The position numbers were made by a program, and so were the translations under genes. Of a DNA stretch of 32,000 nucleotides, positions 2,841 to 20,490 are shown piece after piece. Under the pieces are notes generated by a model that was given only the letters and a program-made list of their open reading frames with translations, did not search any database and had not been told where the DNA came from. Every line of letters begins with the position of its first letter. Position 1 is the stretch's first letter. Source of the stretch: Andreesenia angusta. GTDB lineage: Bacteria > Bacillota > Clostridia > Tissierellales > Gottschalkiaceae. The stretch spans positions 365,448 to 397,447 of the forward strand of contig NZ_MKIE01000001.1 in the NCBI RefSeq assembly GCF_001855385.1. Reading direction: 5' to 3'.

Positions 2841-3506
2841 CTATTTATTCATATACACTATTTCTCTGCCGGATATATTGGATTCTATCCAGGACTCCAT
2901 CCTAGAACCCTTCATGATTTTTCCGGAAAGTTCTCTGTCATTGGTGTAGTAGAGCAGCTTGTCTTCGTATATATAGGCAACGTACATATCTCCGGTTTCA
3001 TTTAGCTGCATTATGCCTGCGAGCTTTCCCTTTAAGTTAGATATGTTTCCCTCTATGGAGTGAAGACTGTTGCTGTTGTCTAAATCGACTCTCTTGGCAT
3101 TCGGTATGCTCTTCACAAAATACGAATAACCTTCAGCACCTAAGAGATACCTCATGTTCCTGACTATGTCTCTGTCTCTTAAAATTGTACTGTAAGGATT
3201 TTTCCCTAAATAGCCCTTTAAGTTGGGGTACGCTATGACTTCTTCGGAGTCGGCAGCTTCTGATCCAGTCTGCTCTTTTTCCTCAAGCTTCTCGCTTTCC
3301 CCACTATCTTGATCCTTCGTGCCCTCTGCGTCCTTTTCGGTTGAAATCGCCGCACTTAAACTCTGTCCAGCTTTCTTCAGATCTTCTAGGTACTGCCCGA
3401 AGTCAAAGAAACCTCTAGAGGAAAACCTATAGCTAAACAGAAAAGACCCTACAAACACTACTGCCACCAGAATCGCCAGTGAAATGCCTGCTTTTCTATA
3501 TCTCAT
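2841..3506 (-). CDS. Hypothetical membrane-anchored protein: N-terminal TM helix, acidic linker, globular C-terminal domain
   Basis: ORF 2841-3542. The likely start is MRYRKAGISLAILVAVVFVGSFLF (a single TM). It has an E/D/S-rich linker. I recognise no family motif. Confidence 0.5.
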   Translation of the reverse strand: MRYRKAGISLAILVAVVFVGSFLFSYRFSSRGFFDFGQYLEDLKKAGQSLSAAISTEKDAEGTKDQDSGESEKLEEKEQTGSEAADSEEVIAYPNLKGYLGKNPYSTILRDRDIVRNMRYLLGAEGYSYFVKSIPNAKRVDLDNSNSLHSIEGNISNLKGKLAGIMQLNETGDMYVAYIYEDKLLYYTNDRELSGKIMKGSRMESWIESNISGREIVYMNK

Positions 3507-3542
3507 AATTATCTCTCTTTCTAGATATCTTCTGAATCTCAA

Positions 3543-4142
3543 CTATATCTTGGTCTCGTTGAGCACCTTGCTGAGCATCTCGTTGAGTCTTAGACACATT
3601 ATGTCTTCATATCTGTATATCAGCATCTCGTCTTCATAAGTCTCCACCCTGTGCCTGAATATGTCCAGATTGTTTTCAAGCTTCTCTATCTCTGAATCTA
3701 AAAACTCAGGCGTTATATCTTCTTGTATGTCGTAGAAAGCCACTTTTCCCTCTCTAGAGTCTATGGCACTGACTTTTTCAAACTTGTCTTCTCTGTCGTT
3801 TACCATCAGGTCTATCTTAAAGCTCATCCACTGGTCCCCTGAAGTCACTATAAAGTGTATATAGTCAGCTATGTACAGCCGAATATGGTGTGAGTTAAGC
3901 TCGCAGTAGAAAGTCTCGTTCATCCTGTCGTTGTCGTACGACTGAGCTGGATAGTACTCTTTCTCGTCTAGATACTCCTTTATGACGTCTTTCTTTGTCA
4001 TAAGGAAATCATGCTTTCTGCTTGAAATCTCTTTTAGAAGAGTGTCCCTCTCCTCTAGACCTCTTTTCAGCCTCATAAGCTTCTCTCTTATGTCATCATC
4101 ATAGTCATTTATATATATTGTTGTAAGTTTATTCAAATTCAT
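3543..4142 (-). CDS. Hypothetical protein, 199 aa, predicted cytoplasmic and helix-rich
   Basis: ATG preceded by the strong SD GAGGAGGAG. Its stop abuts the downstream ORF. No motif recognised. Confidence 0.5.
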   Translation of the reverse strand: MNLNKLTTIYINDYDDDIREKLMRLKRGLEERDTLLKEISSRKHDFLMTKKDVIKEYLDEKEYYPAQSYDNDRMNETFYCELNSHHIRLYIADYIHFIVTSGDQWMSFKIDLMVNDREDKFEKVSAIDSREGKVAFYDIQEDITPEFLDSEIEKLENNLDIFRHRVETYEDEMLIYRYEDIMCLRLNEMLSKVLNETKI

Positions 4143-4590: not shown

Positions 4591-4983
4591 CTATAGTAGT
4601 TTCATCTCAAAGCTTGGCGGATTGGCCAGATGCTTCTTGACTGTGCAAAGCTCCATAGACTTCTGTATTGCATTTTTATACTTGTCTGGGAATCCCTCTG
4701 GAAGAGTCAGACTAAGTGTCATGCTGCCTATTAGTCCTGTCTCGGAGTCTCTTTCTCCGTCTAGCTCAAGCTTAAGACCTTCGGTACTCAGCTCCTTGCT
4801 TTGACAAAAGCTCACAGCGTATATGCCTGCGCAAGTCGCTATGGAAGCCAGGAAAAGGTCAAACGGCGACGGAGCCGAGTTCTCTCCTCCACCAGCCACA
4901 GGCTGATCTGTATTGATTGTAAACCCCTTAGTATGGGCATCCACTTTCTTCCCTCCAGGGAAGCTAACTTCTACCATTGCCAT
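4591..4983 (-). CDS. OsmC/Ohr family peroxiredoxin-like protein
   Basis: 130 aa. The two family cysteines sit in IATCAGIY and MELCTVKKHL contexts. SD GAGGTGA upstream. Confidence 0.8.
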   Translation of the reverse strand: MAMVEVSFPGGKKVDAHTKGFTINTDQPVAGGGENSAPSPFDLFLASIATCAGIYAVSFCQSKELSTEGLKLELDGERDSETGLIGSMTLSLTLPEGFPDKYKNAIQKSMELCTVKKHLANPPSFEMKLL

Positions 4984-5163
4984 ATAATCACCTCTATTTC
5001 AATTTTATATCTGTATAATACTATACCCATAATCCATGGCTTTTACCCGAATTTAGAATTTAACTTTCTCTTAATATAAACTTAATCTGAATCTGTTATA
5101 TTCTTTTTAACAGACAAGCTAACGACTAAATTTTGAATATATACTCCTAAGAGGGAGAGCCAA

Positions 5164-5877
5164 CTATCCAGCTCTCTCTCCTCCTTTTTTTGAGATGCCT
5201 TCATAAAAAGCCTCTAGGTAGAATTCATCCTCCGTTGTCAATTCAAGCTGGCACTCCGACTTAAGCTCTTCTAGCGAACCGTATTTTTCCGAAGTCTCTC
5301 CAAGCTCTATCATTCTGTAGAGCATGTCTTCCATCTCGGCTCTGCTGTAGGGGTCCTTGTGCGAAGTCACATATAATTCGCAGTCATAGCTCAGGATTCG
5401 ATCTGATATTCTGCGCACGTTCTCAAGCGAATGGTACCTTCTCTCACCCCAGAAACCTCTGTATGTAGCATCCCCAAGAAACATTATCTTTTCATTCTCT
5501 ACATATACAAGCGACGAGTCGTCCGAGTGATCTCCGCCTATATGCTCTACGATGCATTTCACTCCTCCTAGATCCAACTTAAGCTTTTTTTCAAAGCCTA
5601 TATCAAGACCTGCTTGCTCCTGTGTTTTGCAAGATCCTAATGAGATCAAGTTCAAATATGGTATTCCACTTATATGGTCCCAGTGGTGATGCGTTATCGC
5701 CAAATACTTTATATTTTTGACGCCCATAGAATTTGCACATTCCAGAAACTCCTCAGCGTGATCTACAGAGCTGCCTGCATCTACCATAAGACTGCACTTC
5801 TCGCCTACAACAAGTCCAAGAGTTGGTCTAGCGCCGCTGTACTCCATGTAGTGAACTTTTCTGCTGTATGATTTCAT
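5164..5877 (-). CDS. MBL-fold metallo-hydrolase
   Basis: ITHHHWDHISG (HxHxDH zinc motif). The SD AGGGGTGA overlaps the ung stop. Confidence 0.8.
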   Translation of the reverse strand: MKSYSRKVHYMEYSGARPTLGLVVGEKCSLMVDAGSSVDHAEEFLECANSMGVKNIKYLAITHHHWDHISGIPYLNLISLGSCKTQEQAGLDIGFEKKLKLDLGGVKCIVEHIGGDHSDDSSLVYVENEKIMFLGDATYRGFWGERRYHSLENVRRISDRILSYDCELYVTSHKDPYSRAEMEDMLYRMIELGETSEKYGSLEELKSECQLELTTEDEFYLEAFYEGISKKGGERAG

Positions 5878-5887
5878 AACTTCACCC

Positions 5888-6565
5888 CTAAATATTCTCT
5901 ATCTGCCAGTCTATCTCGTCTCTCCCGGCCGATTTCAAGAAGCTGTTCGCCCTTGAAAAAGGCTTCGATCCAAAGAACCCCCTGTGTGCTGAAAGAGGGC
6001 TTGGATGTACCGACTCTATGACTAGATGTCTAGCTGTGTCTATTAGACTCTTCTTGGCCCTGGCGTTGTTGCCCCAGAGTATGAATACCATGGGATCCTC
6101 TCTCTTGCTTAAAAGCTCTATAATCTTGTCTGTGAGTATTTCCCAGCCTTTTCCGCGGTGGGAGTTGGCTTCTCCCGCCCTGACGGTGAGCACGGCGTTT
6201 AGCAGTAACACACCTTGATCTGCCCACTTCTTGAGGTATCCGTTGTTTGGAACGTAACAGCCCAGATCGTCTTCAAGCTCTTTGTATATGTTCTTGAGGG
6301 AAGGGGGAGTTGCAACCCCTTCCTTCACTGAAAAGCTGAGCCCGTGAGCCTGACCTTCCCCGTGGTAAGGGTCCTGTCCAAGTATTAGAACCTTTGTATC
6401 GCTGTAAGAGGTGTAGTCTAGTGCGCTGAATATGTCGTACATGCTTGGATATACAACATGATTTCTGTACTCTGATTTGAGGAACTCCCTCAGCTGGAGA
6501 TAGTAGTCTTTTTCAAACTCCTCTCTCAGCATCTCGTTCCAGTCGTTTTTCAATTTCACTGCCAT
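5888..6565 (-). CDS. ung: Uracil-DNA glycosylase, family 1
   Basis: Catalytic motif [20 protein letters not shown] and C-terminal HPSPLSA. The ORF is open to GTG 6583, but ATG 6565 (MAVKLKNDW) matches the usual N-terminus. Confidence 0.9.
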
Positions 6566-6593
6566 TTCATCACTCTCTTTCACTATTTCTTCT

Positions 6594-7403
6594 CTAGAAA
6601 GACAGAGACTCTGTAAACACCTTTACAGGGTACCATCTGTAGTGCTTAAAAGTAGTGTAGCCTAGCTTTTTGTAGAGATGCTCTCCTGCTTCTGAAGCCT
6701 GTAGAACTACAGCACTAGCCCCTCTGTCAAATCCTTCGTTTGTGGCTGATTGGACTATGTAGGCTCCAAGTCCCTCTCTTCGCTTCTCTTCGACTACGCC
6801 TACCCAATATATCCCGGCCATGTCTCCTGAGAGCACTGTGAGCGCCGAGGCCACTGGCTTCTCGCCTTCGTATATCAGCTTTGCGCTTACGTCCTGGGAC
6901 TTAAGAGTCTCTATTTTTCCAAACATATGCTCTGCAAGCTCGATGTCTTTTTCAAAAGAACCAGAAACCACCTTCGCAAAGTCCAGCCTGTCTAGATCCG
7001 ACTCCACCGATTTTATGGAATAGCCTGATTTAAGCTCTACACCTTCTATCTTCCTGTCTATGACCATGGCCGCCGAGCCAGGCTCTCTCTTTGGAGCGTA
7101 TCCGCTCTGCTTAAGCAAATTCTCCAGCTTCTTGTTTTCTGATCCACTGACCCAGAACACGTAGTTCCGCTCGAGCGAATTGAAGTAGCTTTCCGCAGCC
7201 CTCATGGTTTCCGCCGCATATGAGTCGTCCAGGCAAATAGCCCCGTTTAAATGACCGTCCTCGCTGTCTTTCCCTATGGTGAATAGTACATATTTTGAAT
7301 TCTCCACCACATCCCCTTCAGGCAGCACCGCGGCCCTAGATTTTATGGCCTGTATCAGGTTTTCATCTGCTTTCTTTGAAACCTTCTCTTTTTCCATTTT
7401 CAA
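6594..7403 (-). CDS. GNAT family N-acetyltransferase
   Basis: C-terminal acetyl-CoA motif [12 protein letters not shown]...[16 protein letters not shown]. The start is either TTG 7403 or ATG 7397. Confidence 0.75.
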
Positions 7404-7416
7404 TCCCTACTTCCCC

Positions 7417-8175
7417 CTATTTCATATCCAATTTCAGTGTGACGGGACAGTGGTCGCTTCCCATGACTTCAGAGTCTATTCCCGCACAAGCTATATGCTC
7501 TTTCAGCCTATCTGAAACCAAAAAGTAATCGATTCTCCACCCGGCGTTGTTCTCTCTGGCCTTTCTCATATAAGACCACCAAGTGTATGCTCCTTCTTGC
7601 TCAGGATACAGCTTTCTAAAGCTGTCGGTGAATCCTGACTCTATTAGCTCTGTGAGCTTTCCCCTCTCGTCGTCTGTAAATCCGGCGTTTTTTCTGTTGC
7701 TCTTCGGATTTTTCAGGTCTATCTCGTTGTGGGCTACGTTTAAATCCCCGCAGATCACAACCGGCTTTATCTCGTCATATGATTTCACATGCTTCCTGAA
7801 TATGTCTTCCCATACCATCCTGTAGTCCAGCCTTGCCAGCTCTCGCTGGGAGTTCGGAGTGTATACATTCACAAGGTAGAACGCTTCGAATTCAAGCGTT
7901 ATTATTCTCCCCTCCAGCTCGTTCTCTGTTTCTCCAATTCCGTAGCTTACACTCAAGGGCTCCGCTTTTGTAAATACAGCTGTCCCAGAGTAGCCCTTCT
8001 TCTCTGCATAGTTCCAGTACTGAAAATACCCGTCCAACTCCAGATCTATCTGACCTTCTTGAAGCTTTGTCTCCTGAATACAGAATACGTCTGCATCCGC
8101 AGCTTCAAAGTAGTCCATAAAACCTTTTTTAACGCACGCCCTCAGGCCGTTTACATTCCAAGATACAAATTTCAT
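7417..8175 (-). CDS. xth: Exodeoxyribonuclease III (AP endonuclease)
   Basis: MKFVSWNVNGLRA N-terminus, CIQETK, GDLNVAH and SDHCPV motifs. ATG 8175 follows the SD GGAGGA. Confidence 0.9.
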   Translation of the reverse strand: MKFVSWNVNGLRACVKKGFMDYFEAADADVFCIQETKLQEGQIDLELDGYFQYWNYAEKKGYSGTAVFTKAEPLSVSYGIGETENELEGRIITLEFEAFYLVNVYTPNSQRELARLDYRMVWEDIFRKHVKSYDEIKPVVICGDLNVAHNEIDLKNPKSNRKNAGFTDDERGKLTELIESGFTDSFRKLYPEQEGAYTWWSYMRKARENNAGWRIDYFLVSDRLKEHIACAGIDSEVMGSDHCPVTLKLDMK

Positions 8176-8231
8176 AACATCCTCCATCTTTCGTTCTAGC
8201 TTTGCTTCTCATTCTACCAGATTTTCCAGGA

Positions 8232-10769
8232 CTAGAGGTATTCGTTTGCGGAAAATTTAAGCCTTTCTATGGAAAAATTGCATTCAGCCAGTATCTCCGG
8301 CCAAATCCTGACCATCTCCTTGACTTTCTCCTTTATAGCTCTAGAGATTTCCTCCCAAGGGACCAGTTCCGGATCTGTCTTTTTCTCGCTGTCTTTCACC
8401 TCTCCATATGACCATCCAGTCTCTTTCTTGTGGTAGTACCATCTGTTGTGCTCGTACTCGGCCAGTATTTCAAGCTCGTTTTCAGTGAACTTTATCGGCC
8501 TAGGGTTTTCCTTTACATAGGATATGTCGTAGTGGACTGTGAGCAGAGCATTTGTGATATGCTTGGCCTGGTCTCTGCTCGAATTCTTGAGCTCCTCGTC
8601 CAACTCGTCCCATGGCTTTAGAAACTCCGGGTTTATGTCCTTGTTTATAAGCCTGTACCTCTCGTGTATCTCCATGGCTATCCTCTCCAGCTTTTCACTG
8701 TAGAAAGCGTCGTGCATCAGATGCCTGAGGAACTGGTCTTCGTCCACATGGAGCTTTAACTGCTCTTTTGAAGGAAGCTGGGACTGTCCCCATTTCTTGG
8801 CGTTAGTCAGCATGCTCATGTCAAGTATGGCCTCTATCGACCTGGACTCGTGCTTGTACCTCGAAACCTTCAAGAGCGCTCTAAGCACTCCGCTGTCTAT
8901 CTTGGCCTTTCCGTTTTCCTCTAGCAGGTGTGGAGCTTTTAGCTCTATAAGCGTTCTGAGTATCACAGCCCTTCTTATTATATAGAGCTGGTCATATGAG
9001 TCGCTCACCTTGTTAGGCCCGAGTATGTTTACGTAACCCCTGAGCCTGCTCACAAAGTCAGGACCTTTTGCGTCCCTGAACTCCGAACCCTCCTCGCAGA
9101 ATTCATCGTATGTGCTGCTTGTCCCTCCTGCAAACACGAATATAGCTCTGCCTATAGGGTGGACCGAGTCTCCATCCCTGAACTCCCCGTCCTGCATCGG
9201 AGCCAGCAGGTATTTCAGCCATCCCAGCTTCCCTCCGAAAGCCGAGTCGAATTCGTCAAAGAACACCAGCGGTATCTTCTGCTGAAGCGACAAGTCTCTC
9301 ACCTTATGAAAGGCTTCCGCCAGATTGTCTATGTCCCTGAACTGCGAGAGATTAAAATTCAGCTTCTCTATCCTGTTCGGGGCGATGCTCTTGGCTATCT
9401 CCGTGACCCCGAAAGACTTTCCAGATCCAGGTGTTCCAAATACCGCTATAGAGAGCGGCCTTGCCACCGACTTGCTGGAGATATACTCCTCCATGAGGTT
9501 CTTTATGCTTCTGTAGCTCTCTATCTCTGTCCTGTCCACAGATTTCAGATTCCCAAACTTGGATACAGGTACAAACTTTAATACATCCTTGTCTCCGCAT
9601 TTGACTATATCCTGAGCTATCTGGGCTATGCTCGCAGAGCTCTTATCTTTCAATATATACCAGTCTAGGTATGAATCCATGTCCATGTAGTTTGGGATTC
9701 TCACGTCCTGAACATGCTCTTTCAGCACGTAGTCCGACTTTGCGCTCCTGAATATCTCGGGGCTCGGAAAAGGGCAGTCTTTGCACATGCTTCCGAAGCC
9801 TTCTACGTAGTATTTATTGGAGGCCACCATCCCAAGCCTTATCCCCTCGTCTATGGCCATGTCCAAGCTCTCCTTGTTGTAGTTCATCTCCAGTATGCTC
9901 TTCGAGAGTCCGGAGACAAAACAGGAAGTCAAGCCGTAGATTTTGCCTCTCTCTTCCCTTATAGTCTCGCCTTCAAAGGCGTAAGGCAGGAAGTAGAGCT
10001 TGTACTCCACGACGCTCTCATTCCTGTAGTATATGGCCCCTTCAAGCCCAAATGGAACTACAAGGTGTTTGCAGTTCAGCAAAAAAGAAAGTCTGGGGTT
10101 GTTGTTCAGCTGCCATACGAAGTCCTGTGAAGTCTTCTCCCAAGACAGACTCTTGCTTATGTTGACGCCTTTCAGTCTCAAGTCGTCGCTGTTTATGACT
10201 ATGACCGTATTTTCCAGATGGTTCTTCTCCAAGTGCTTCCAGAGGGGATTCGAGTCTATGGGGTTGTTCATCTTGTATATTATGGTAGGACGCTTCCCCT
10301 CTGTGACTATGCCCTCTGGCCAGTACTCCGGCGACTCGTTGAATCCGTTGTTCTCGTCGTCTATTATTATCAGCTTTGAATCCGGGTCATCCTGCTCTAT
10401 CTTCAAGAGCTTTGGCCTGCCGCCGAAGGGCTCGGAGAACCCTAGAAATCGCTTCACTCTGTAGACTTTTTTCTTGGGCGTCTTGGGGTGCTTTGGGTAC
10501 TGCTCCAGCTCCGCCGTAGAGCTCAGGAACTCCCCAAGGCTGTCAAAGTCTATTTCGTCGAGTTTGGGCGAAACCACGTTTGCCCCGGTGGATATGCCCA
10601 CAAACTTTGCAAGCAGCAACGACTCTCCAGGCCTAGAAACGCTGTGGACATGCGAGTAGCCTTCCCAGTTATGCCCGTGTATCTCCTTGGGCTTTGTGAT
10701 CCACTGCGTTCTATTTATGCTTATGTCACCTGAAACCACTATGTTGAAATTGCCGTAGTTTCGCTCCAT
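8232..10769 (-). CDS. 845-aa multidomain protein: degenerate ribokinase/PfkB-like N-terminal module, AAA+ ATPase, tandem RyR domain; function unknown
   Basis: Walker A GTPGSGKS (aa 445-452, nt 9414-9437); Walker B LVFFDEFD; sensor-1-like FAGGTSS; Arg-rich FVSRLRG. RyR repeats are IAMEIHERY...PWDELDEELKNSSRDQA and LAEYEHNRWYYHKKETGWSYG...LVPWEEIS. The N-terminal ~345 aa follows PfkB motif order but has GLTS where PfkB has GAGD. Confidence 0.85.
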   Translation of the reverse strand: MERNYGNFNIVVSGDISINRTQWITKPKEIHGHNWEGYSHVHSVSRPGESLLLAKFVGISTGANVVSPKLDEIDFDSLGEFLSSTAELEQYPKHPKTPKKKVYRVKRFLGFSEPFGGRPKLLKIEQDDPDSKLIIIDDENNGFNESPEYWPEGIVTEGKRPTIIYKMNNPIDSNPLWKHLEKNHLENTVIVINSDDLRLKGVNISKSLSWEKTSQDFVWQLNNNPRLSFLLNCKHLVVPFGLEGAIYYRNESVVEYKLYFLPYAFEGETIREERGKIYGLTSCFVSGLSKSILEMNYNKESLDMAIDEGIRLGMVASNKYYVEGFGSMCKDCPFPSPEIFRSAKSDYVLKEHVQDVRIPNYMDMDSYLDWYILKDKSSASIAQIAQDIVKCGDKDVLKFVPVSKFGNLKSVDRTEIESYRSIKNLMEEYISSKSVARPLSIAVFGTPGSGKSFGVTEIAKSIAPNRIEKLNFNLSQFRDIDNLAEAFHKVRDLSLQQKIPLVFFDEFDSAFGGKLGWLKYLLAPMQDGEFRDGDSVHPIGRAIFVFAGGTSSTYDEFCEEGSEFRDAKGPDFVSRLRGYVNILGPNKVSDSYDQLYIIRRAVILRTLIELKAPHLLEENGKAKIDSGVLRALLKVSRYKHESRSIEAILDMSMLTNAKKWGQSQLPSKEQLKLHVDEDQFLRHLMHDAFYSEKLERIAMEIHERYRLINKDINPEFLKPWDELDEELKNSSRDQAKHITNALLTVHYDISYVKENPRPIKFTENELEILAEYEHNRWYYHKKETGWSYGEVKDSEKKTDPELVPWEEISRAIKEKVKEMVRIWPEILAECNFSIERLKFSANEYL

Positions 10770-10770
10770 C

Positions 10771-11160
10771 TTAATCTTCCTCTGCCCTTATCATCTCCAC
10801 TCTGTAGCCGTCAGGATCTGTCACAAAGTAGAATGTCGGCGGAGTTCCCGGAAGCCCGCTTAAGTTTGTAACACTGTATCCCATCTTTTCATGCTTCTCT
10901 CTCGCGCCTTCAAGGTCTTCAACTTCCACTGCTACATGGCTGTATCCATTTCCTATGATGTACGGCTCTTTCTGATCGTAGTTGTAGGTAAGCTCCAGCT
11001 CGTACTTTCTGTCTTCGTCGCTCAAGTACACCAGTGTAAATCCATGTTCGGGGAAATCCTTTCTCCTGGTCTCCACTAGCCCTATGGCGTTTTTGTAAAA
11101 CTCAAGTGATTTCTCTAAATCCATAACTCTTATGCATACGTGCAGCATCTTAACTTTCAT
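10771..11160 (-). CDS. gloA: Lactoylglutathione lyase (glyoxalase I, VOC superfamily)
   Basis: MLHVCIRVMDLEKSLEFYK, ELELTYN, YSHVAVEV and DPDGYRVEMI place the four metal ligands as in GloA. SD AAAGGAG upstream. Confidence 0.75.
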   Translation of the reverse strand: MKVKMLHVCIRVMDLEKSLEFYKNAIGLVETRRKDFPEHGFTLVYLSDEDRKYELELTYNYDQKEPYIIGNGYSHVAVEVEDLEGAREKHEKMGYSVTNLSGLPGTPPTFYFVTDPDGYRVEMIRAEED

Positions 11161-13467: not shown

Positions 13468-13500
13468 AAAAGACGGACCCTGATGGGGTCCGTCTTTTTT
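13468..13500. terminator. Bidirectional terminator between convergent ilvE and bioA
   Basis: AGACGGACCC (13471-13480) pairs with GGGTCCGTCT (13486-13495). An A-run lies on the left and T6 on the right. Confidence 0.7.
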
Positions 13501-14872
13501 ATGCTCCGAAGTGCTCTTTTATCGAATTTGCTGCCACGTCTGTCATAAAGTCCATGTCATCTTGATCCACAACATACGGGGGCATAAAGTATATTATATT
13601 TCCCAGCGGCCTAAGCAGCACGCCTTTCGTGACTGCTCTCTTGTATATCTCGTACCCCACTCTCAGATTGGGGTCGAACCCTAGCTTGTTCGCCCTGTCT
13701 GATACAAGCTCTATGGCCCCTATCATCCCTAGCTGGCGGTATTCGCCTACCTGCTCTATGTTTTTTATCTTCTGGGTCACCATATCGTACATAGCCTTGG
13801 ACTTTTCCCGGTTTTTATCTAGTATGAATTCGTCCTTGAATATATTAAGCGACTCCACCCCAACTGCACACGAAAGCGGATTTCCCGTGTAGCTGTGGGA
13901 GTGTAGAAACGACTTCATCTTGTCGTAGTCATCGTAGAAAGCTCTGTATATCTCGTCTGTGGTGACTGTCAAGGCCATGGGAAGGTACCCTGCCGTAAGC
14001 CCTTTCGACAGGCAGACTATATCAGGCACTATTTTGGCATGGTCTATTCCAAACATCTTCCCTGTCCTTCCAAAGCCCACCGCTATCTCATCTGCTATAA
14101 GGTTTATTCCGTAGCAAGTGCACAGCTTCCGCAGCTTTTCAAGGTATTTAGGGGAGTATATATTTATTCCCCTTGCACACTGCACCATGGGTTCCACTAT
14201 TATCCCGCTTATATCCTTATGCTCTCTTGAAACCCTCTCTTCCATAAGCTCAAAGCACTCGGCCTCACAGCTCTCTCTTCTAAGCCCGTATCTGCACCTG
14301 TAGCAGTCCGGCCCTTCCACTCTTTTCACGTCTAAAAGCATGGGGCTGTATATGTCGCTGTAGAGACCCACTCCGCTTACAGACAGCGCCCCTATAGTCT
14401 CGCCATGGTAGGCCCCCTCCAGAGACAGAAACTTTGTCTTTCCGCTCTGGCCAGTCTGCATATGGTATTGAAAGCTCATCTTGAGCGCGATCTCCACAGC
14501 AGAAGAGCCGTTGTCGCTGAAGAAGACCTTGGAAAGCCCGTCCGGCAATAGCTCAACCACCATCTCAGACAGCTCTATTGCGGGGCTGTGCGAAAAATTG
14601 GCGAATATCGCATGCTCCAGCTTGTCCACCTGAGCTTTCAGCGCCTCGTTTATCCTCTTGTTCGAATGTCCAAACAGATTCACCCACCATGAGGACACAG
14701 CGTCTAGATAGCTTTTCCCGTCCACGTCGTAGAGATAGGCCCCCTCCCCTCTCGCCAGCACTATCGGAGGGAAGTCCTCGTAGTCCTTCATCTGCGAGCA
14801 AGGATGCCATATATGTTTCAAGTCCCTCTGCTGAAGCGATTTCATTTCATCGCTGTAAAAACAGTTTTTCAA
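13499..14872 (-). CDS. bioA: Adenosylmethionine-8-amino-7-oxononanoate aminotransferase
   Basis: HIWHP N-terminal motif and class-III aminotransferase motifs (DEIAVGFGRTGKMF). TTG 14872 lies 6 nt after the SD AGGGGGTGG. Confidence 0.9.
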   Translation of the reverse strand: MKNCFYSDEMKSLQQRDLKHIWHPCSQMKDYEDFPPIVLARGEGAYLYDVDGKSYLDAVSSWWVNLFGHSNKRINEALKAQVDKLEHAIFANFSHSPAIELSEMVVELLPDGLSKVFFSDNGSSAVEIALKMSFQYHMQTGQSGKTKFLSLEGAYHGETIGALSVSGVGLYSDIYSPMLLDVKRVEGPDCYRCRYGLRRESCEAECFELMEERVSREHKDISGIIVEPMVQCARGINIYSPKYLEKLRKLCTCYGINLIADEIAVGFGRTGKMFGIDHAKIVPDIVCLSKGLTAGYLPMALTVTTDEIYRAFYDDYDKMKSFLHSHSYTGNPLSCAVGVESLNIFKDEFILDKNREKSKAMYDMVTQKIKNIEQVGEYRQLGMIGAIELVSDRANKLGFDPNLRVGYEIYKRAVTKGVLLRPLGNIIYFMPPYVVDQDDMDFMTDVAANSIKEHFGA

Positions 14873-15461
14873 CGTCTTCCACCCCCTTGAATTCAGTTAT
14901 GACCTCTAGTCCAGTGTACGCCTCTACGACTCTCTTGTTGTCTTGCTCAAACTCGCTGCCTGCATATCTATTCGCAAATATTGACCTTACCTCTATTCCC
15001 TTTGACTTCAGGAATTCATAAGACAGCAGCGTGTGGTTTATTCCACCTACCCTCAGCTCGGTCACGAGTAGCACCGGGACTCCCAGCTCAAGCATCATCT
15101 GCCACATGTAGTACTCTCCCCTTACGATCGGAACCACAATGCCTCCAGCGCCCTCTACAATTATGTAGTCGGCATTTTCCGCCATATGGTTGTAGTCGTC
15201 AAGTATCTTTGCTCTCGATATCTCGACTCTTTCCAGCTCAGAAGACAGATGCGGAGAGCAGGGCTCCTTCATGGTGTAGCTGTTGGCCACTCTGATCCCG
15301 CAGCCTGACAATTCGTCTGTGTCTCCGTATCCTCCACTCTGCACAGGCTTGTAGTATACGGCGTGCTTTCCTGATTCTACTAGCTTCTCTGAGATAGCTC
15401 TAGAGACTACAGTCTTTCCTATGTCTGTATCTGTTCCCGTTATAAATATAGACTTCTTCAA
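14847..15461 (-). CDS. bioD: Dethiobiotin synthase
   Basis: P-loop ITGTDTDIGKT. TTG start follows the SD GGAGAGGTGAGGA. Confidence 0.9.
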   Translation of the reverse strand: MKKSIFITGTDTDIGKTVVSRAISEKLVESGKHAVYYKPVQSGGYGDTDELSGCGIRVANSYTMKEPCSPHLSSELERVEISRAKILDDYNHMAENADYIIVEGAGGIVVPIVRGEYYMWQMMLELGVPVLLVTELRVGGINHTLLSYEFLKSKGIEVRSIFANRYAGSEFEQDNKRVVEAYTGLEVITEFKGVEDVEKLFLQR

Positions 15462-15465
15462 TTCC

Positions 15466-16275
15466 TCACCTCTCCACAGTTACGTAAATGCAGTGGTAAC
15501 TGGCTCTTATCTTTTCTTTTTCCCTGTAGCTTTGATCGTATATCTCCATTGTGCGCTTTATAATTCCAGGGCTGTTTGTAAGCATGTCGCTTTTGCTGTT
15601 GGCGCCTATCTTCTTTATGGAGTGGAGAAATTCTTTCGACGAATCAAAGTACTCGTACTCCATCTTCTCTTCTAATTTTATTTTGCATTTAAGCCCGATT
15701 GACTTGGCGCTGCGCTCAAGCATCAGTTTAAGTTCTGGCAAACTGTAAAAGCTCTGTCCCAGTCTCGCTCCGTCGAACGAGTTTTTTTCTAGTCTTGCCT
15801 TCTTGAAAGCTTCGTTTAGCTCCCAGAAGTTCTTTTCCCCAAAAGTCGAAAACGTCATGAGCCCTCCTGTCTTCAAGCATCCAGTCAGCTTGGAGAACGT
15901 GGACTCTATTTCATTTAACCACTGAAATGTGGCGTTTGAAACGATCAAGTCGTATTCGCATTCAAAGTTGGCACTCTCTACATCTTCACAGCGAAACTCG
16001 ACTATCTTGCCAAACTTCTTGCTTGACTCTTCTATCATCCCCGGGGCTATGTCTAGAGCGTGTAACTTAGGATTTTCAAGCTCTCGCAAGAGGAGTCCTG
16101 TCAGATACCCTGTGCCGCAGCCTATCTCCAGTACATCCAAGTTGCTCTGTTTTTTTGCAGCAGCTTTCACTTCCCCGATCAGCTTCTGAGACATCTTCTT
16201 CTGCACAAGAGCGTAGCTGTCATAGCTGGATGCGCTTGCGCTGAACCGCCTGCGCAGAGAATTTTTGTCTATCAT
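15466..16275 (-). CDS. bioC: Malonyl-ACP O-methyltransferase
   Basis: SAM motif VLEIGCGTGYLT. Its position in the bio operon supports the call, and its ATG overlaps the bioH stop (ATGA). Confidence 0.85.
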   Translation of the reverse strand: MIDKNSLRRRFSASASSYDSYALVQKKMSQKLIGEVKAAAKKQSNLDVLEIGCGTGYLTGLLLRELENPKLHALDIAPGMIEESSKKFGKIVEFRCEDVESANFECEYDLIVSNATFQWLNEIESTFSKLTGCLKTGGLMTFSTFGEKNFWELNEAFKKARLEKNSFDGARLGQSFYSLPELKLMLERSAKSIGLKCKIKLEEKMEYEYFDSSKEFLHSIKKIGANSKSDMLTNSPGIIKRTMEIYDQSYREKEKIRASYHCIYVTVER

Positions 16276-17012
16276 GCGTCATCTCCCCTATCCATAAACT
16301 CCTCTATATACTTAAAGCAAAGCTCCTCTTCAGTCAAGAAAGGGACATGCCCACATCTCTCTATAGTCTTTAACTCAAAGCTGTTCATATTTCTCTCCGC
16401 CATGTACTTTGACGCCTCTACTGGCACTATCATATCCGCTTCACCGTGCACCATCAGCGTAGGGACGCTTAAACCCTGAACGATCTCCCTCAAGTCTGTT
16501 TTTTTGAGGTATTCGAGCCCCAGTTTAAGCTGCTCTATATCTTGAGCCTTCAAGTTATCTAGCCCTGACTTGTCCAAGTTTCTCTCTATTTCGCTTTCAG
16601 AGAAAAGACTGGATCTGAACGAGCTCACTGTCTCCTCGCCTCTCAAGTCCAGATTCCTTATCATCCTGTCCAGAACCTTGGCTCCCCATCCCGCCCTGTA
16701 CCCACTCTCTTTGTCTTGGGTAAACCTAGAGGTGGGTGATATCAGTATCAGCCGGTCCAAGGGCTTATATAGCTCTGCCGCAAGTTCAAGGGCCACAATC
16801 GCACCTAGCGACCACCCCAGTAGACTTACACTTCTAGCTCCTGCTTTTGAGATATGTTCACTCACCCTGTCTTTGAAGGATTCTGTAGAGCAAATGCCCT
16901 CCCAGTCCAGATGCTCTATTTGAAATCGACCTGAAAGCGAATCCGAGAAACTCCCCCAGATATTCTTGTCCATGCTCCACCCCGGAAGCATTATCAGATA
17001 CGGCTTATCCAT
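16272..17012 (-). CDS. bioH: Pimeloyl-ACP methyl ester esterase (alpha/beta hydrolase, BioH-type)
   Basis: Nucleophile elbow LLGWSLGA and C-terminal CGHVPFL. It lies between bioF and bioC. ATG 17012 follows the SD GAGGAG. Confidence 0.7.
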   Translation of the reverse strand: MDKPYLIMLPGWSMDKNIWGSFSDSLSGRFQIEHLDWEGICSTESFKDRVSEHISKAGARSVSLLGWSLGAIVALELAAELYKPLDRLILISPTSRFTQDKESGYRAGWGAKVLDRMIRNLDLRGEETVSSFRSSLFSESEIERNLDKSGLDNLKAQDIEQLKLGLEYLKKTDLREIVQGLSVPTLMVHGEADMIVPVEASKYMAERNMNSFELKTIERCGHVPFLTEEELCFKYIEEFMDRGDDA

Positions 17013-18189
17013 CTGCACCAACTCCTCTTGTTATTCCAAGCTCTGCTCCTAAATCTTTCAAAACCTCCAGCGCCCACTCCAGTTCTTCTCTCTTGTGGGT
17101 CGCCATTATTGTCACCCTCAGTCTGCTTGTGTTTTTAGGAACCGTAGGCGGTCTAATGCACGGTATGTAGATTCTGCTCTCCATAAGCCTCCGGCTGAAC
17201 TCCATCCCCAGGTCTGAATCTCCCACCAGTATGGGTATTATAGGTGTAACTCCATCTGGAACTGAAAAGCCCATAGCCTGAAGTTCAGCCCTGAACCATG
17301 CGCTGTCTATCCTTAGCTTCTCTCTTGAAAAGCTTTCGCTTTCCACTATAGATATGGATGCTAGCGCTGTAGCCAATGTGGCAGGGGACAGCGCTGTAGA
17401 GTAGACGAAGCTCTTGGCCCTATGCCTCAGGTATTCCACTATCTCTTTTCTGGAAGCTATAAATCCCCCTTCTCCCCCCAGCGCCTTGCTGAGCGTCCCC
17501 ATCTGAATGTCCACTTCTCCTTCCAGCCCCAAATACTCCTCTGTGCCTCTTCCATGCTTTCCTATGACACCTGTGGCGTGGGCGTCGTCAACCATAGTCA
17601 TAGCCCCGTGACGCTTGGCTATGCGCAGTATGTCTTTAAGAGGGGCTATGTTCCCATCCATGCTGAAAACTCCGTCTGTGACCACAAGGTTGTTTTTGCC
17701 CTTGTACCGTTTCAGTTTTTTCTCCAGGTCCTTTATGTCGCAGTGTTTGTAGACCACGAATTTAGCTTTGCTCAGCCTGCACCCGTCCACTATGCTTGCG
17801 TGGTTCAGGCGATCCGAGAACACTGTCCAGCTCTCGTCTGTAAGGCCAGATATAGTCCCTAGATTCGCCATATATCCGGTGTTGTAGACCATGCCACACT
17901 CTCTTTTTTTGAAGCTTGCTATCCTCTCCTCAAGCTCCCTGTGGAGTGCCATGCTTCCCGTGGTCAGCCTGGACCCTCCACTCCCTACACCGTACGTTTT
18001 TACGGCCTCTATTGCAGCTTCTTTCAGCCGCTCGTCATTGCACAGCCCCAGGTAGTTGTTAGACGAAAGCAGTAGCACTCTTCTCCCGTCTATTACTGCA
18101 CTGGAGCCTTGCGCCGAATTTATATACCTTAGCTCCCGATATCCTCCGCTTCGCTTTATATTTTCAATCTTCTGCCCTATCGAATCCAT
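17005..18189 (-). CDS. bioF: 8-amino-7-oxononanoate synthase
   Basis: PLP-lysine motif GTLSKALGGEGG and DDAHATG. ATG 18189 follows GGAGGA; the ORF is open to TTG 18201. Confidence 0.9.
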   Translation of the reverse strand: MDSIGQKIENIKRSGGYRELRYINSAQGSSAVIDGRRVLLLSSNNYLGLCNDERLKEAAIEAVKTYGVGSGGSRLTTGSMALHRELEERIASFKKRECGMVYNTGYMANLGTISGLTDESWTVFSDRLNHASIVDGCRLSKAKFVVYKHCDIKDLEKKLKRYKGKNNLVVTDGVFSMDGNIAPLKDILRIAKRHGAMTMVDDAHATGVIGKHGRGTEEYLGLEGEVDIQMGTLSKALGGEGGFIASRKEIVEYLRHRAKSFVYSTALSPATLATALASISIVESESFSREKLRIDSAWFRAELQAMGFSVPDGVTPIIPILVGDSDLGMEFSRRLMESRIYIPCIRPPTVPKNTSRLRVTIMATHKREELEWALEVLKDLGAELGITRGVGADG

Positions 18190-18248
18190 CTTTTCCTCCA
18201 AAACAGCTATGTAGTTAGAATAAAATAAGTCTATTTTAAAAACCAGTC

Positions 18249-18282
18249 ATTGTCAACCTATTTTATTATTTAAGTTGACAAT
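18249..18282. promoter_or_regulatory. BirA-type biotin operator (bioO) overlapping the bio promoter -35
   Basis: Perfect 9-bp inverted repeat: ATTGTCAAC (18249-18257) and GTTGACAAT (18274-18282), separated by 16 AT-rich nt. This matches the TGT(T/C)AAC-N-GTT(A/G)ACA operator pattern of Firmicute BirA. On the minus strand, TTGACA-17 nt-TAGACT follows. Confidence 0.6.
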
Positions 18283-18328
18283 CATTTTTGATATAATGTA
18301 CTTATCAATTATATCGGAGGTGCTTGGA

Positions 18329-18820
18329 ATGAATTATGCTTTTAGCTATTCTACTTGCGCAGGTGATGTGGTGATTGTGGAAGACGGCAGCTCTGTAACA
18401 TCTATCTTTTTCGGAAACGACATTCCCCCAGACGCAGTCTATTCCGAAACCCCTCTCTTGAAAAAAGCCTTCAACCAGGTACAAGAATACCTGCGAGGCG
18501 ACAGGAGGGAATTCAGCTTACCAATAAAGCTTGAGGGAACCGACTTCCAGAAAGCTGTGTGGGACGCTCTCCTATCCATTCCATACGGCGAGACGAAAAG
18601 CTACAGCGAAATAGCTTCAGCTGTTGGGAATCCACGTTCTCAAAGAGCTGTAGGCTCTGCTTGCTCTAAAAACCCCATTCTCTTGGTGGTCCCTTGCCAC
18701 CGTGTAGTGAGCTCATCTGGAGCCACTTCAGGGTATGCGGCAGGAGTGGCTTTAAAAGAGAAGCTCCTGGAACTTGAAAAAAGAATTTCTCAAAGTTTTG
18801 ATTCAAGTCACATAGTATAG
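18329..18820 (+). CDS. ogt: Methylated-DNA--protein-cysteine methyltransferase
   Basis: Active site VPCHRVV and YGETKSYSEIA. ATG 18329 follows the SD GGAGGTG. An extended -10 TGATATAAT lies upstream. Confidence 0.85.
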   Translation: MNYAFSYSTCAGDVVIVEDGSSVTSIFFGNDIPPDAVYSETPLLKKAFNQVQEYLRGDRREFSLPIKLEGTDFQKAVWDALLSIPYGETKSYSEIASAVGNPRSQRAVGSACSKNPILLVVPCHRVVSSSGATSGYAAGVALKEKLLELEKRISQSFDSSHIV

Positions 18821-18868
18821 GTATATTTAGTAATATAATGTATCTATATTGATATGGAGGGGATAATC

Positions 18869-19588
18869 ATGAGTGAAGAAAACAGAACGAGTATAGACAC
18901 CTCTCTTTCCCTTGGAGAGATAGTGCTGAGTTTTCCGGATTCTGTAGAGCTATTCAACATGTACAAGCTGGACTACTGCTGCGGAGGTGACCAGAAGCTT
19001 TCGGAAGCTTTCGAGGATTTGAAGGGCGAAGGCGTGGACACAGATAAGCTGCTTGAAGAGCTAAACAGAAAGTACAGCGCTTTTCTTGAAAAGAAAGAAG
19101 AGATAAGAGACTGGAGAAGTGAAACTCCATCGGGCCTTATAGAGCATATACTGAACACACACCACGTATATACAAAAAAGACGTTGCAAGAGCTCGACGA
19201 CATGGTTTTAAAGATCTTGAAGGTTCACTTCAAGGATTATAGCGAAGAACTTCTAGTGGTTCACTCTCTCTTCGGTTCTCTGAAGACAGAACTTGAAGCT
19301 CATCTCATAAAAGAAGAAGAACAGCTTTTCCCAATGATCTTGAGCTATGAAAGCAGCAGCGACGAGTCTCTGCTCTCAGATATAAGAAAGTTCATCTCTG
19401 AAACCGAGTCAGAGCATGACGCTGCAGGGGATATTCTAAAGGAGCTTGAAGAGGTGACAAGAGACTTCACTCCACCTGATGGAACCTGCACCACTTTCAA
19501 GAGGGCTTATATGACTCTTGATGACTTGGAAAAAGATATCTTTACACATATACATCTCGAAAACAGCGTGCTTTTCAAGATGTTTTAG
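18869..19588 (+). CDS. ric: Iron-sulfur cluster repair di-iron protein (RIC/ScdA/YtfE family)
   Basis: N-terminal LDYCCGG (ScdA_N) and hemerythrin-like H/E motifs (HHVYTKK, HLIKEEEQLFP, SEHDAAG, HIHLEN). ATG 18869 follows GGAGGGG. Confidence 0.85.
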   Translation: MSEENRTSIDTSLSLGEIVLSFPDSVELFNMYKLDYCCGGDQKLSEAFEDLKGEGVDTDKLLEELNRKYSAFLEKKEEIRDWRSETPSGLIEHILNTHHVYTKKTLQELDDMVLKILKVHFKDYSEELLVVHSLFGSLKTELEAHLIKEEEQLFPMILSYESSSDESLLSDIRKFISETESEHDAAGDILKELEEVTRDFTPPDGTCTTFKRAYMTLDDLEKDIFTHIHLENSVLFKMF

Positions 19589-19636
19589 AAAGCCAGACAT
19601 AGAGACAAAGCTCTATGTCCGGCTTTCTTGTTTTCA
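19588..19636 (+). terminator. Rho-independent terminator after ric
   Basis: GAAAGCCAGACATAGAG and CTCTATGTCCGGCTTTC form a 17-bp stem with one mismatch and a 6-nt loop, followed by TTGTTTTC. Confidence 0.65.
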
Positions 19637-19659
19637 ATTTTTCTAAAGGAGGAGATTTT

Positions 19660-20490
19660 TTGTTGAAAATAGGATGCCACCTGTCCACTTCCAAAGGCTT
19701 TAAAGCCATGGGAGTTCAGGCGCTCAACATAGACGCAAACACGTTTCAGTTTTTCACCAGAAACCCAAGAGGAGGTAAGGCAAAGGCCATAGACGAATCC
19801 GATGTAGAGTCTCTGCTTGAGATAGTCTCAGAGCATGAGTTTGCATCTCTGCTGGCTCACGCACCGTATACGCTAAACCCCTGCTCCAACTCTGAAAGCA
19901 CAAGGGAGTTTGCGCTTCAGGTCATGGAAGACGACCTTCGCCGTATGGAGTACCTTCCTGGAAACCTCTACAATTTTCACCCTGGAAGCCATGTGAAGCA
20001 AGGTGTAGATCTGGGCATAGAGCTTATAGTTGAGACGCTGAACAGCGTGCTTAAGCCCGAGCACAGGACGACCGTACTGCTGGAGACCATGTCGGGAAAG
20101 GGTACAGAAGTCGGAAAGACTTTTGAAGAGCTCAAGAGGATTATAGACGGTGTAAAGCTCTCAGACAAGATGGGAGTCTGCTTAGACACCTGCCATGTCT
20201 ACGATGCCGGCTACGACATAGTGAACGACCTAGATGGAGTTCTAGCTGAGTTCGACAGCATCATAGGGCTTGAAAAACTTAAAGCCATTCACCTAAATGA
20301 CAGCAAGAACCCGTTCAAGAGCCATAAAGACCGCCACGAAAAGATAGGAGAAGGCCATATAGGCTTTGAAGCAATAGAGAGAATTGTGAACCACTCTGCT
20401 CTTCGCGATCTGCCGTTTTTCCTTGAAACCCCAAATGAGATACCTGGATACGCCGACGAAATACGTGCGCTTAGAAGCGTATATCGCTAG
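19660..20490 (+). CDS. nfo: Endonuclease IV (deoxyribonuclease IV)
   Basis: (M)LKIGCHLS N-terminus like Nfo, with [19 protein letters not shown] and HLNDSK metal-ligand motifs. TTG 19660 or 19663 follows the SD AAGGAGGAG. The upstream ATG 19615 lies inside the terminator. Confidence 0.9.

Follow-up and report, generated by a model that had tools for sequence, protein, structure and literature searches.

A pseudo-ribokinase, an AAA+ ATPase and a ryanodine receptor domain on one polypeptide: a candidate nucleotide-regulated ATPase of Andreesenia angusta

What would a bacterium do with a protein that joins a disabled sugar-kinase fold, an AAA+ ATPase and a ryanodine receptor (RyR) domain? The question is raised by a gene of Andreesenia angusta, encoded on the minus strand of a 32,000-nucleotide stretch of contig NZ_MKIE01000001.1 (positions 365,448 to 397,447, assembly GCF_001855385.1), which is referred to here as the window. 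The original prediction, made from the sequence alone, read the 845-residue product as three modules in a combination that belonged to no characterised enzyme or named defence protein, with the pseudo-kinase as ligand sensor and the RyR domain as adaptor of a conflict or signalling NTPase. The explanation favoured here, held with middling confidence, is a soluble AAA+ ATPase that works by itself under nucleotide control and belongs to a three-module family descended from conflict systems, with the Firmicute clade a derived and decoupled branch.

The open reading frame (ORF) is a genuine gene that purifying selection strongly maintains, since it has more than 900 full-length homologues of similar length (nearly all 845–870 residues) and a ratio of nonsynonymous to synonymous substitution (dN/dS) of 0.018 against a 97%-identical relative, at a dS of 0.87. 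By module, the ratio is 0.022 for the PfkB-like part, 0.007 for the AAA+ part, and 0.028 for the RyR part. The peptides on which the three-module reading was based are found where they were placed in the translation. Identity is 57–64% across Firmicute classes (Clostridium, Oxobacter, Crassaminicella, Desulfosporosinus, Pelotomaculum, Negativicutes), and the homologues are annotated only as "RyR domain-containing protein" or "hypothetical protein". A pseudogene or decaying remnant was considered and is ruled out by the intact ORF, the invariant motifs, and the low dN/dS. A membrane or channel protein is not supported either, as the Pfam scan contained no channel or membrane family (no dedicated transmembrane prediction was made) and the full-length AlphaFold2 (AF2) model consists of three globular alpha/beta and helical modules. 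This model has a mean predicted local distance difference test score (pLDDT) of 70 and gave mixed Foldseek matches, and for the N-terminus it was replaced by a domain-only model.

The C-terminal module is an R12-type RyR domain, homologous to the phage protein RyDEP and to the adenine-nucleotide-binding R12 of animal ryanodine receptors. Pfam PF02026 matches it at 53 bits (cut-off 27.4) in two stretches, best at residues 766–835, which agrees with the tandem RyR C-terminus first proposed. Repeats of RyR1, RyR2, and RyR3 are matched by phmmer, and with the full-length model Foldseek retrieves crystals of human RyR3 Repeat12 in complex with ATP, ADP, or AMP-PCP (including 6uhh and 9l9b) at E ~2e-6. 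The best phage match to the C-terminal 156 residues (tblastn) is RyDEP, gp78 of Mycobacterium phage DyoEdafos, at 33% over 130 residues. The module is co-linear with one RyDEP protomer over its full length; both have a short half-repeat ahead of a complete second one, and a His/Trp pair is conserved between them. RyDEP is a stand-alone viral protein of 138 residues, whereas the window module forms the C-terminus of a cellular ATPase. Animal R12 belongs to the same Pfam family but is a peripheral regulatory domain of a 5,000-residue Ca2+ channel, while the window protein has no channel, membrane segment, or other RyR-specific domain, and its first repeat is truncated.

The view that the bacterial role of this domain is essentially unknown has been overtaken by a preprint of May 2026, in which phage R12-type RyR domains bind or cleave the cyclic ADP-ribose (cADPR) isomers 2'/3'cADPR (PMC13232231). 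In RyDEP, H75 and D117 form the catalytic dyad, with H75 contacting the ribose and acting as catalytic base and D117 as catalytic acid, while W78 stacks on the adenine and H100 contacts the phosphate (PMC13232231). Other phage RyR homologues, which act as sponges, bind the 2'/3'cADPR signals at nanomolar affinity without cleavage; among the eight assayed, six bound signals and none cleaved them (PMC13232231). The equivalent residues of human RyR3 R12 touch adenine nucleotides and dantrolene (PMC13232231). Animal R12 is presented as a nucleotide-binding site in two further reports (PMC12627627, PMC13642953), and the RY12 domain of RyR1 as an ADP sensor in the second (PMC13642953). With 2'/3'cADPR as ligand or substrate of the phage R12-type domains, and ADP and ATP as ligands of animal R12, the RyR module is most probably the nucleotide sensor of the protein and not its adaptor. 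Of the four RyDEP tetrad residues, the pocket of the window protein keeps the two in contact with ribose and adenine and has neither the phosphate-binding His nor the catalytic acid. As the equivalents of H100 and D117 are D799 and V816, the glycosidase mechanism of RyDEP would be unavailable to the window protein.

The fold of the N-terminal module is recognised only through structure prediction and Foldseek, because the sequence methods were all empty. Pfam (no PfkB, PF00294, at E≤1), NCBIfam, and phmmer against the PDB found nothing in this region, and a 26-sequence family profile matched no PDB sequence. A domain-only AF2 model built on a diverse alignment of 82 sequences reaches a pLDDT of 95 and a predicted template-modelling (TM) score of 0.94. 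When this model is searched against the PDB with Foldseek, each of the first 50 matches is a PfkB kinase (best E 8e-9, target-normalised TM 0.50–0.56), within a total of 215 matches at E≤1e-3, and PfkB kinases are also matched by the full-length model. The kinases matched include tagatose-6-phosphate kinase/PFK-2, HldA, ribokinases, the M. jannaschii nucleoside kinase, ketohexokinase, and PsuK. The PfkB/ribokinase-like character claimed for the N-terminus is therefore seen in the predicted structure, with no match at sequence level.

The same module is predicted to be a PfkB/ribokinase fold without the residues for phosphoryl transfer. An hhalign comparison of the family with five E. coli PfkB paralogues (RbsK, PsuK, FruK, PfkB, KdgK) gives a local alignment at 34% probability (E 4e-4). 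It sets F-G-L-E-G against the L-G-S-R-G turn of RbsK and K276-I-Y-G-L-T281-S282 against D249-T-I-A-A-G254-D255. On this placement the catalytic base, D255 in RbsK, would be Ser282, the anion-hole Gly (G254) would be Thr281, and the anion hole as a whole would be GLTS (279–282) in place of A252–D255, as had been proposed for GAGD. None of the 26 diverse family members has an Asp in the catalytic column. At the presumed GG hinge, where the lid strand ends and helix 1 starts in the model, the window has P-G48-E49 (PGES), also as first described, and most of the family has GGA within the consensus PGGAxLLA; the equivalence is one of position. At the NxxE site the window reads N193-S-D-D196, with N193 not conserved in the family and D-L-R (D196, R198) as the conserved element.

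Eighteen residues are invariant across phyla: G14, D15, G48, R104, G110, D137, D138, W150, K166, L176, R198, S209, W210, E211, G244, E266, G313, and W370. They include five acidic (D15, D137, D138, E211, E266) and three basic residues (R104, K166, R198). In the model, D15 directly follows strand 1 and D137–D138 follow the strand at 133–138, which we take to be the positions where RbsK places its ribose-binding residues. With these 18 residues invariant, the domain is no decayed relic but a module under constraint, made for ligand binding or for catalysis of a non-canonical kind. The proposal of a sensor in place of a kinase stands in part: the catalytic Asp and anion hole are gone, but with so many invariant and charged residues the domain could also be a non-canonical enzyme. 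In common with PfkB kinases such as RbsK, LacC, HldA, MjNK, and KHK, the module has the alpha/beta fold with a beta-sheet lid, and the local profile alignment spans the G-x-x-G turn and the helix of the catalytic motif. It differs from them in the missing PF00294 match, the Asp-to-Ser and GAGD-to-GLTS changes, the lack of a conserved NxxE, and ~85 extra residues that link it to the ATPase; the structural similarity is at a TM of ~0.5 with a large root-mean-square deviation.

The middle module is clearly an AAA+ ATPase, with all catalytic motifs conserved. PF00004 matches residues 443–514 at 25.1 bits (cut-off 21.2), the Walker A and B motifs are intact and invariant or nearly so across phyla, and the module is 51–79% identical across phyla and 70–79% across Firmicute classes. 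T550, R575 (with R577), and R643, the candidates for sensor 1, arginine finger, and sensor 2, are invariant and lie where such residues would be expected, both along the sequence and in the secondary structure of the model, whose ATPase part is of low confidence. In the full-length model, hairpin strands at 529–532 and 535–538 precede the strand at 541–546, and the module is tentatively placed in the pre-sensor-1 hairpin group. This placement is tentative because similarity to solved AAA+ proteins is weak. Weak PDB profile matches include Hsp104 nucleotide-binding domain 2 (NBD2), torsin, Rpt1, Vps4, and RFC, and the best extended alignments (~165 profile positions) are with Hsp104/ClpB-type NBD2, with two P-loop-only matches ranking above them. 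The ClpB/Hsp104 NBD2, ClpX, HslU, and Lon group shares the Walker motifs and hairpin with the window protein, as well as the putative sensor 1, arginine finger, and sensor 2. The resemblance is slight, with no E value better than 3e-3 across the core, and the window protein has no recognisable protease, substrate-binding N-domain, or partner. A ~20-residue insertion of other Firmicute homologues (consensus EDIxDExExKxFLxEF), located between sensor 1 and the GPDF motif, is absent from the window protein at residues 556–566 (~9072–9104), which there resembles the distant clade described below.

Features of the gene, its product and its immediate neighbours (window coordinates)
Feature	Residues	Coordinates	Strand	Basis and remarks
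Complete ORF, ATG start; pseudo-ribokinase, AAA+ ATPase and RyR (R12-type) module	845 aa	8232..10769	-	ORF call
PfkB/ribokinase-fold domain with beta-sheet lid	8-345	9735..10748	-	AF2 model and Foldseek
Presumed PfkB GG-hinge position SRPGESLLLAKF	45-56	10602..10637	-	Model secondary structure; equivalence positional, inferred
Presumed PfkB D-T-x-G-A-G-D-equivalent site GKIYGLTSCFVSGL	275-288	9906..9947	-	hhalign; N-terminus of helix 280-297 in model
Alpha/beta linker, ending in invariant DRxEIESYRSI helix that leads to the ATPase	346-430	9480..9734	-	Alignments, model
AAA+ ATPase core and helical lid	431-690	8700..9479	-	Pfam PF00004, alignment
Walker A, GTPGSGKS	445-452	9414..9437	-	Invariant G448, G450, K451, S452
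Walker B, LVFFDEFD	501-508	9246..9269	-	Invariant D505-E506-F507-D508
Beta-hairpin ahead of sensor-1 strand PMQDGEFRDGDSVHPIGRAIFV	524-545	9135..9200	-	Model; conserved PMQDG..F..G...HP.G
Sensor-1 region, FAGGTSS	546-552	9114..9134	-	Invariant F-A-G-G-T
GPDFVSRLRG, candidate arginine finger(s) R575/R577	569-578	9036..9065	-	Invariant D571, F572, S574, R575; role inferred from position after sensor 1
HESRSIEAI, candidate lid sensor-2 arginine R643	640-648	8826..8852	-	Invariant R643, S644; role inferred
R12-type RyR module: short first repeat (692-745) and full second repeat (762-836)	691-840	8250..8699	-	Pfam, PDB matches, tblastn, alignment
EHNRW: H774 = RyDEP H75, W777 = RyDEP W78	773-777	8439..8453	-	Alignment
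D799 in place of RyDEP H100, V816 in place of RyDEP D117	796-820	8310..8384	-	Alignment
Glyoxalase-family gene (gloA), upstream		10771..11160	-	Stop 1 nt before ATG; GAGGA Shine-Dalgarno inside its 3' end
Exonuclease III gene (xth), downstream, 44 bp away		7417..8187	-	Followed by GNAT, ung and MBL-fold genes

The family to which the protein belongs is large and cellular. A scan of one genome per GTDB species (185,579 species representatives) confirmed at least 330 relatives in many bacterial and some archaeal phyla. Among the matches listed are Bacillota, Chloroflexota, Acidobacteriota, Planctomycetota, Gemmatimonadota, Chlorobi/Ignavibacteria, Thermodesulfobacteriota, Actinomycetota, and Verrucomicrobiota, as well as several candidate phyla and methanogenic or Methanomassiliicoccales archaea. 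The N-terminal 420 residues alone retrieve 1,536 cluster representatives at 50% identity, with 196 at E<1e-30 and most 840–930 residues long. In subsets of a 96-sequence alignment surveyed for architecture, a few proteins carry a variant C-terminus on the same N-terminus and AAA core, namely TIR in place of RyR, RyR with TIR, RyR with Nudix, or TPR. The family is essentially absent from viruses, with just three weak or partial matches in 2.9 million IMG/VR contigs and no Foldseek match for the N-terminus in BFVD. On these two results a phage origin or a phage counter-defence role was ruled out. The sole substantial viral-contig match (UViG_3300048597_000653, 117 kb; L093:8001-9956) is 43% over residues 176–685, without the first part of the kinase-like domain or the RyR module, and could be a host fragment, prophage cargo, or a variant architecture.

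The genomic neighbourhoods divide the family in two. In the census, ORFs were called in 84 loci and clustered, small hidden Markov models (HMMs) were built from seeds, and the seeds were checked with Pfam. In a distant clade (≤44% identity), ~37 of 50 loci carry SLOG(-SLATT), TIR, RelA/SpoT-SLOG-RyR, TrkA_N-RyR, STAND, or Nudix genes. A SLOG-like gene lies directly downstream of distant core genes, often with overlapping stop and start codons, and encodes either ~190 residues alone or a fusion to a two-transmembrane SLATT_1 domain (29.6 and 35.2 bits, cut-off 26.3). The SLOG-like label comes from motifs, weak DprA and deoxyribosyltransferase matches, and the SLATT fusion. TIR_2 neighbours occur as TIR-STAND-TPR, as a TIR-x-RyR protein, and as TIR with a solute-binding domain; NACHT/DUF4062 STAND NTPases and small Nudix genes are found as well. 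Pfam confirms TIR_2, RelA_SpoT, LSDAT_prok, SLATT_1, NACHT, TrkA_N, and NUDIX among these neighbours. In the Firmicute clade, none of the ~34 census loci (28 in the tree), nor the window, has such partners within ~8 kb. This solo clade, including the window protein, is monophyletic in a neighbour-joining tree, and its sister group carries partners in five of six lineages.

The RyR pocket follows the same division. The full H-W-H-D tetrad of RyDEP is present in 26 of 45 distant-clade proteins, with the Asp kept in 41, and ~32 of 36 solo-clade proteins, including that of the window, have V, I, M, or L in place of this Asp. The distant relatives lend real support to the proposed conflict or signalling NTPase, as they adjoin TIR, SLOG-SLATT, RelA/SpoT, and STAND genes or are fused to TIR or Nudix. 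The window copy is solo, lies in no defence island, and has a partly degenerate pocket. Among the loci surveyed, homologues occur in conflict-type neighbourhoods in the distant clade and not in the Firmicute clade.

Several proteins of the distant loci are of note in their own right. A 1,115-residue family member (L077:3288-6635) carries a SLOG-like domain fused after RyR at its own C-terminus, as does another of 1,089 residues (P0232). Such fusions speak for the core protein being functionally linked to the small SLOG-like gene that lies downstream of it. Three RelA/SpoT proteins are encoded beside PfkB-AAA-RyR genes. Two (L035:10688-13267 and L049:1459-4008) combine RelA/SpoT with a prokaryotic LSDAT (TRPM-type SLOG) and a C-terminal RyR, so that two nucleotide-sensor domains of animal Ca2+ channels, the SLOG of TRPM and the R12 of RyR, stand on one bacterial polypeptide. 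The third (L045:10410-12476) has RelA/SpoT, TPR repeats, and a weak LSDAT match, without RyR. Proteins of ~600 residues with TrkA_N (NAD-binding Rossmann) and a C-terminal RyR adjoin the core gene in several phyla (L076:10985-12817, L033:2394-4205, L081:11149-13140, L040:7672-9504); Pfam confirms both domains in three of the four, and that of L040 is matched by its RyR tail only. In a Chloroflexota metagenome-assembled genome, the gene beside the family member (L043:421-2733) encodes an N-terminal TIR_2 joined to an extracellular solute-binding domain of family 5 (SBP_bac_5). This combination is unusual among TIR proteins, and the product could be a ligand-sensing signal generator.

In the favoured explanation, the RyR pocket, which keeps His774 and Trp777, would bind a ligand of the adenine-nucleotide type (ADP, ATP, or a derivative of ADP-ribose). 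The conserved cleft of the pseudo-kinase may in addition hold a ribosyl or phospho-sugar ligand. Ligand occupancy would then govern assembly of the AAA+ ring, its ATPase cycle, or both, and the ring would provide the output, either by remodelling some target or by consuming ATP. The family would have arisen as the core of nucleotide-signalling conflict systems with TIR, SLOG, and RelA/SpoT, in which the RyR pocket had the full H-W-H-D. Partner genes, catalytic Asp, and phosphate-binding His would later have disappeared from the Firmicute clade, which persists solo under strong purifying selection. In A. angusta itself, an endogenous sensor of nucleotide or stress state, or a self-contained defence protein, is more likely than a cADPR hydrolase. 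A bolder version, which is possible though doubtful, makes the PfkB-like/AAA+/RyR family a new TIR-linked (Thoeris-like) branch with RyR as receiver or processor of the signal and a prokaryotic antecedent of animal R12, the Clostridial solo clade being domesticated and sensing ADP, ATP, or ADP-ribose to drive its AAA+ motor.

Several points weigh against the favoured explanation. The mapping of PfkB motifs depends on topology and on the 34%-probability alignment. With two of the four RyDEP ligand residues missing, the RyR pocket of the window protein may take some other ligand or no ligand at all. In the full-length model, the AAA+ part reaches a pLDDT of just 50–75. The neighbour census used home-made HMMs from few seeds, both it and the tree are quick analyses, and the small SLOG-like neighbours have no Pfam match. 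Finally, the solo clade has no identifiable output or effector.

Among the alternatives, a somewhat unlikely one is a self-contained, single-gene abortive-infection defence, in which nucleotides derived from the infection or the host would act on the RyR domain or pseudo-kinase to switch on the AAA+ module, depleting ATP or disabling an essential complex. The partners and fusions of the distant relatives fit this, as do the patchy spread over many phyla (a few hundred of the species representatives among the matches listed), the varying flanking genes among genera, and the presence of two divergent copies in some genomes such as C. magnum and Clostridium sp. DJ247. It is difficult to reconcile with the negative PADLOC result, a window free of defence and mobile-element genes, the very high conservation of the protein and above all its AAA+ module, and an RyR pocket that has lost the residues for cADPR chemistry and stands with no partner or effector. 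A RyDEP-like glycosidase that degrades 2'/3'cADPR as a host-encoded terminator of TIR signalling is the most improbable reading. Homology and co-linearity with RyDEP and the retained H774 and W777 speak for it, and it is plausible, and likelier than here, for the distant clade that keeps H-W-H-D. In the window protein the catalytic acid and phosphate-binding His are gone, no TIR gene lies in the window, and none of the eight assayed phage homologues cleaved the signals. The AAA+ switch, with an endogenous or self-contained role, is preferred to a cADPR hydrolase and to a classical system of the defence-island type because there are no glycosidase residues, partners, or recognisable effector and because purifying selection is very strong.

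Two readings remain. A metabolic enzyme powered or gated by the AAA+ module, in which the N-terminal domain acts through non-canonical residues as a kinase or transfers phosphoryl or glycosyl groups in some other way, is very unlikely. Its invariant residues, with their charged members and the Asp and DD at presumed ribose-binding positions (by equivalence with RbsK), and the low dN/dS of the domain would suit such an enzyme; the family-wide absence of the catalytic Asp and GAGD anion hole, the unconserved NxxE, the missing PfkB profile match, and the lack of a conserved metabolic operon context argue against it. A lineage-adapted regulator of stress, or of DNA damage and detoxification, acting with glyoxalase, exonuclease III, GNAT, and uracil-DNA glycosylase and perhaps sensing ADP-ribose or sugar-phosphate stress metabolites, is unlikely but draws on the window itself. 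The gene starts one nucleotide from the glyoxalase stop with an internal Shine-Dalgarno, the following gaps are short with no terminator detected, the gene order is shared with close relatives, selection is strong, and repair and detoxification genes abound in the window (ung, xth, ogt, nfo, OsmC, and one of the RIC/ScdA family). This association is gone outside the narrow lineage. A family-wide functional link to the operon partners is unlikely because unrelated genes flank it in C. bovifaecis, in Dendrosporobacter, and in the other solo-clade loci (~30), among them ABC transporters, MCP-domain genes, and HxlR/flavodoxin genes.

The kind of system proposed, a nucleotide-sensing domain with an NTPase in conflict or signalling, is known already. 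SLOG/SLATT nucleotide-sensing systems were reportedly described by Burroughs et al. in 2015. Thoeris effectors such as ThsA (SLOG-SIR2) and SLOG systems couple a nucleotide receiver to an output module (10.64898/2025.12.03.692087). The present family shares this logic, and its distant members adjoin TIR, SLOG-like, and SLATT genes. It differs in its receiver, which is RyR and not SLOG, Macro, or SAVED, and in what the receiver is coupled to, an AAA+ ATPase with a pseudo-kinase and not SIR2 or a transmembrane domain; the window copy also has no TIR partner. No description of the PfkB-AAA+-RyR architecture, or of a RyR-TIR-SLOG gene association, was found in the literature searched, which included comparative-genomic surveys of conflict systems, a 2025 TIR survey, and the RyDEP preprint (subscription-only papers lay outside the search), nor is the architecture a named system in PADLOC-DB. 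What appears to be new is the combination of modules and a multi-gene system whose members have RyR in common.

The RyR domain had no established bacterial function until 2026, when its phage versions were found to bind or cleave cADPR isomers made by TIR proteins (PMC13232231). Here a large cellular family joins it to an AAA+ motor and a disabled ribokinase fold. If the proposed reading is true, this would add a new receiver domain and a class of effector or regulator to bacterial nucleotide immune signalling, and would give a concrete evolutionary route to the nucleotide-sensing R12 of animal ryanodine receptors. The partnered, tetrad-intact members and the solo, tetrad-degenerate ones would be a natural contrast for the domestication of an immune module. 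For annotation, a defined three-module architecture with testable residues can replace "RyR domain-containing protein".

In the window, the gene belongs to a co-directional array of glyoxalase, RyR-family, xth, GNAT, ung, and metallo-beta-lactamase (MBL)-fold genes with gaps of 1, 44, 13, 10, and 10 bp. No convincing promoter or terminator was found between them in a scan that performed no better than on shuffled sequence. The RyR-family gene is probably co-transcribed and translationally coupled with the glyoxalase gene, and the whole array is possibly one transcription unit. The gloA-RyR-xth order recurs in the 97% and 80% relatives, and the close relatives L090, L091, and L092 show gloA-RyR-xth-GNAT-ung. 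Elsewhere in the solo clade the gene is flanked by ABC transporters and radical-SAM genes (C. bovifaecis), TonB and MacB (Dendrosporobacter), or HxlR and flavodoxin-like genes (five loci). The xth/ung neighbourhood, suggested as a possible constant companion, is specific to the lineage, and a family-wide functional link to these genes was rejected on this confinement to close relatives. A gene for a 319-residue MCPsignal-domain protein lies directly upstream of the solo-clade gene in L010 (6964-7923) and seven other Clostridium loci, which may be plain synteny or a signalling link. Both C. magnum (L010, L062) and Clostridium sp. DJ247 (P0005, P0026) have two full-length solo-clade copies, those of C. 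magnum being near-neighbours in the tree.

No defence, integrase, or transposase gene and no TIR, SLOG, RelA/SpoT homologue (RSH), or second RyR gene is present in the window. PADLOC (PADLOC-DB v2) gave only a P-loop-level mad8 match for the protein (E 0.005, 14 bits), and PADLOC and PHROGs together returned nothing past P-loop and RyR-repeat matches. The other window genes are ordinary chromosomal ones. They encode an ABC-F ATPase, a DsbA-like protein, a sigma factor, OsmC, an MBL-fold hydrolase, Ung, GNAT, Xth, the glyoxalase, XdhC, IlvE, a biotin cluster, Ogt, a RIC/ScdA-family protein, Nfo, an Mrp antiporter subunit, an SLH wall protein, a flavodoxin, several transporters, a GTPase, PanC, and PanB.

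Repair and detoxification genes are unusually dense at 4591-11160 (OsmC, MBL-fold, ung, xth, glyoxalase) and 18275-20490 (ogt, RIC/ScdA hemerythrin, endonuclease IV nfo). The biotin-synthesis cluster (13499-18201, minus strand, 4.7 kb) lies between ilvE and ogt and comprises genes for a BioA-like aminotransferase, a BioD-like AAA_26 protein, a methyltransferase, an alpha/beta hydrolase, and a BioF-like class I/II aminotransferase. It is an insertion or deletion difference between close relatives, since ilvE and ogt are adjacent and the cluster is absent in L090, the 97% relative. Two minus-strand ORFs of 233 and 199 residues (2841-4142, abutting at 3542/3543) have no Pfam match at E≤1e-5. They lie just upstream of a sigma-70-family gene on the same strand (1912-2811) and could be its anti-sigma or regulatory partners.

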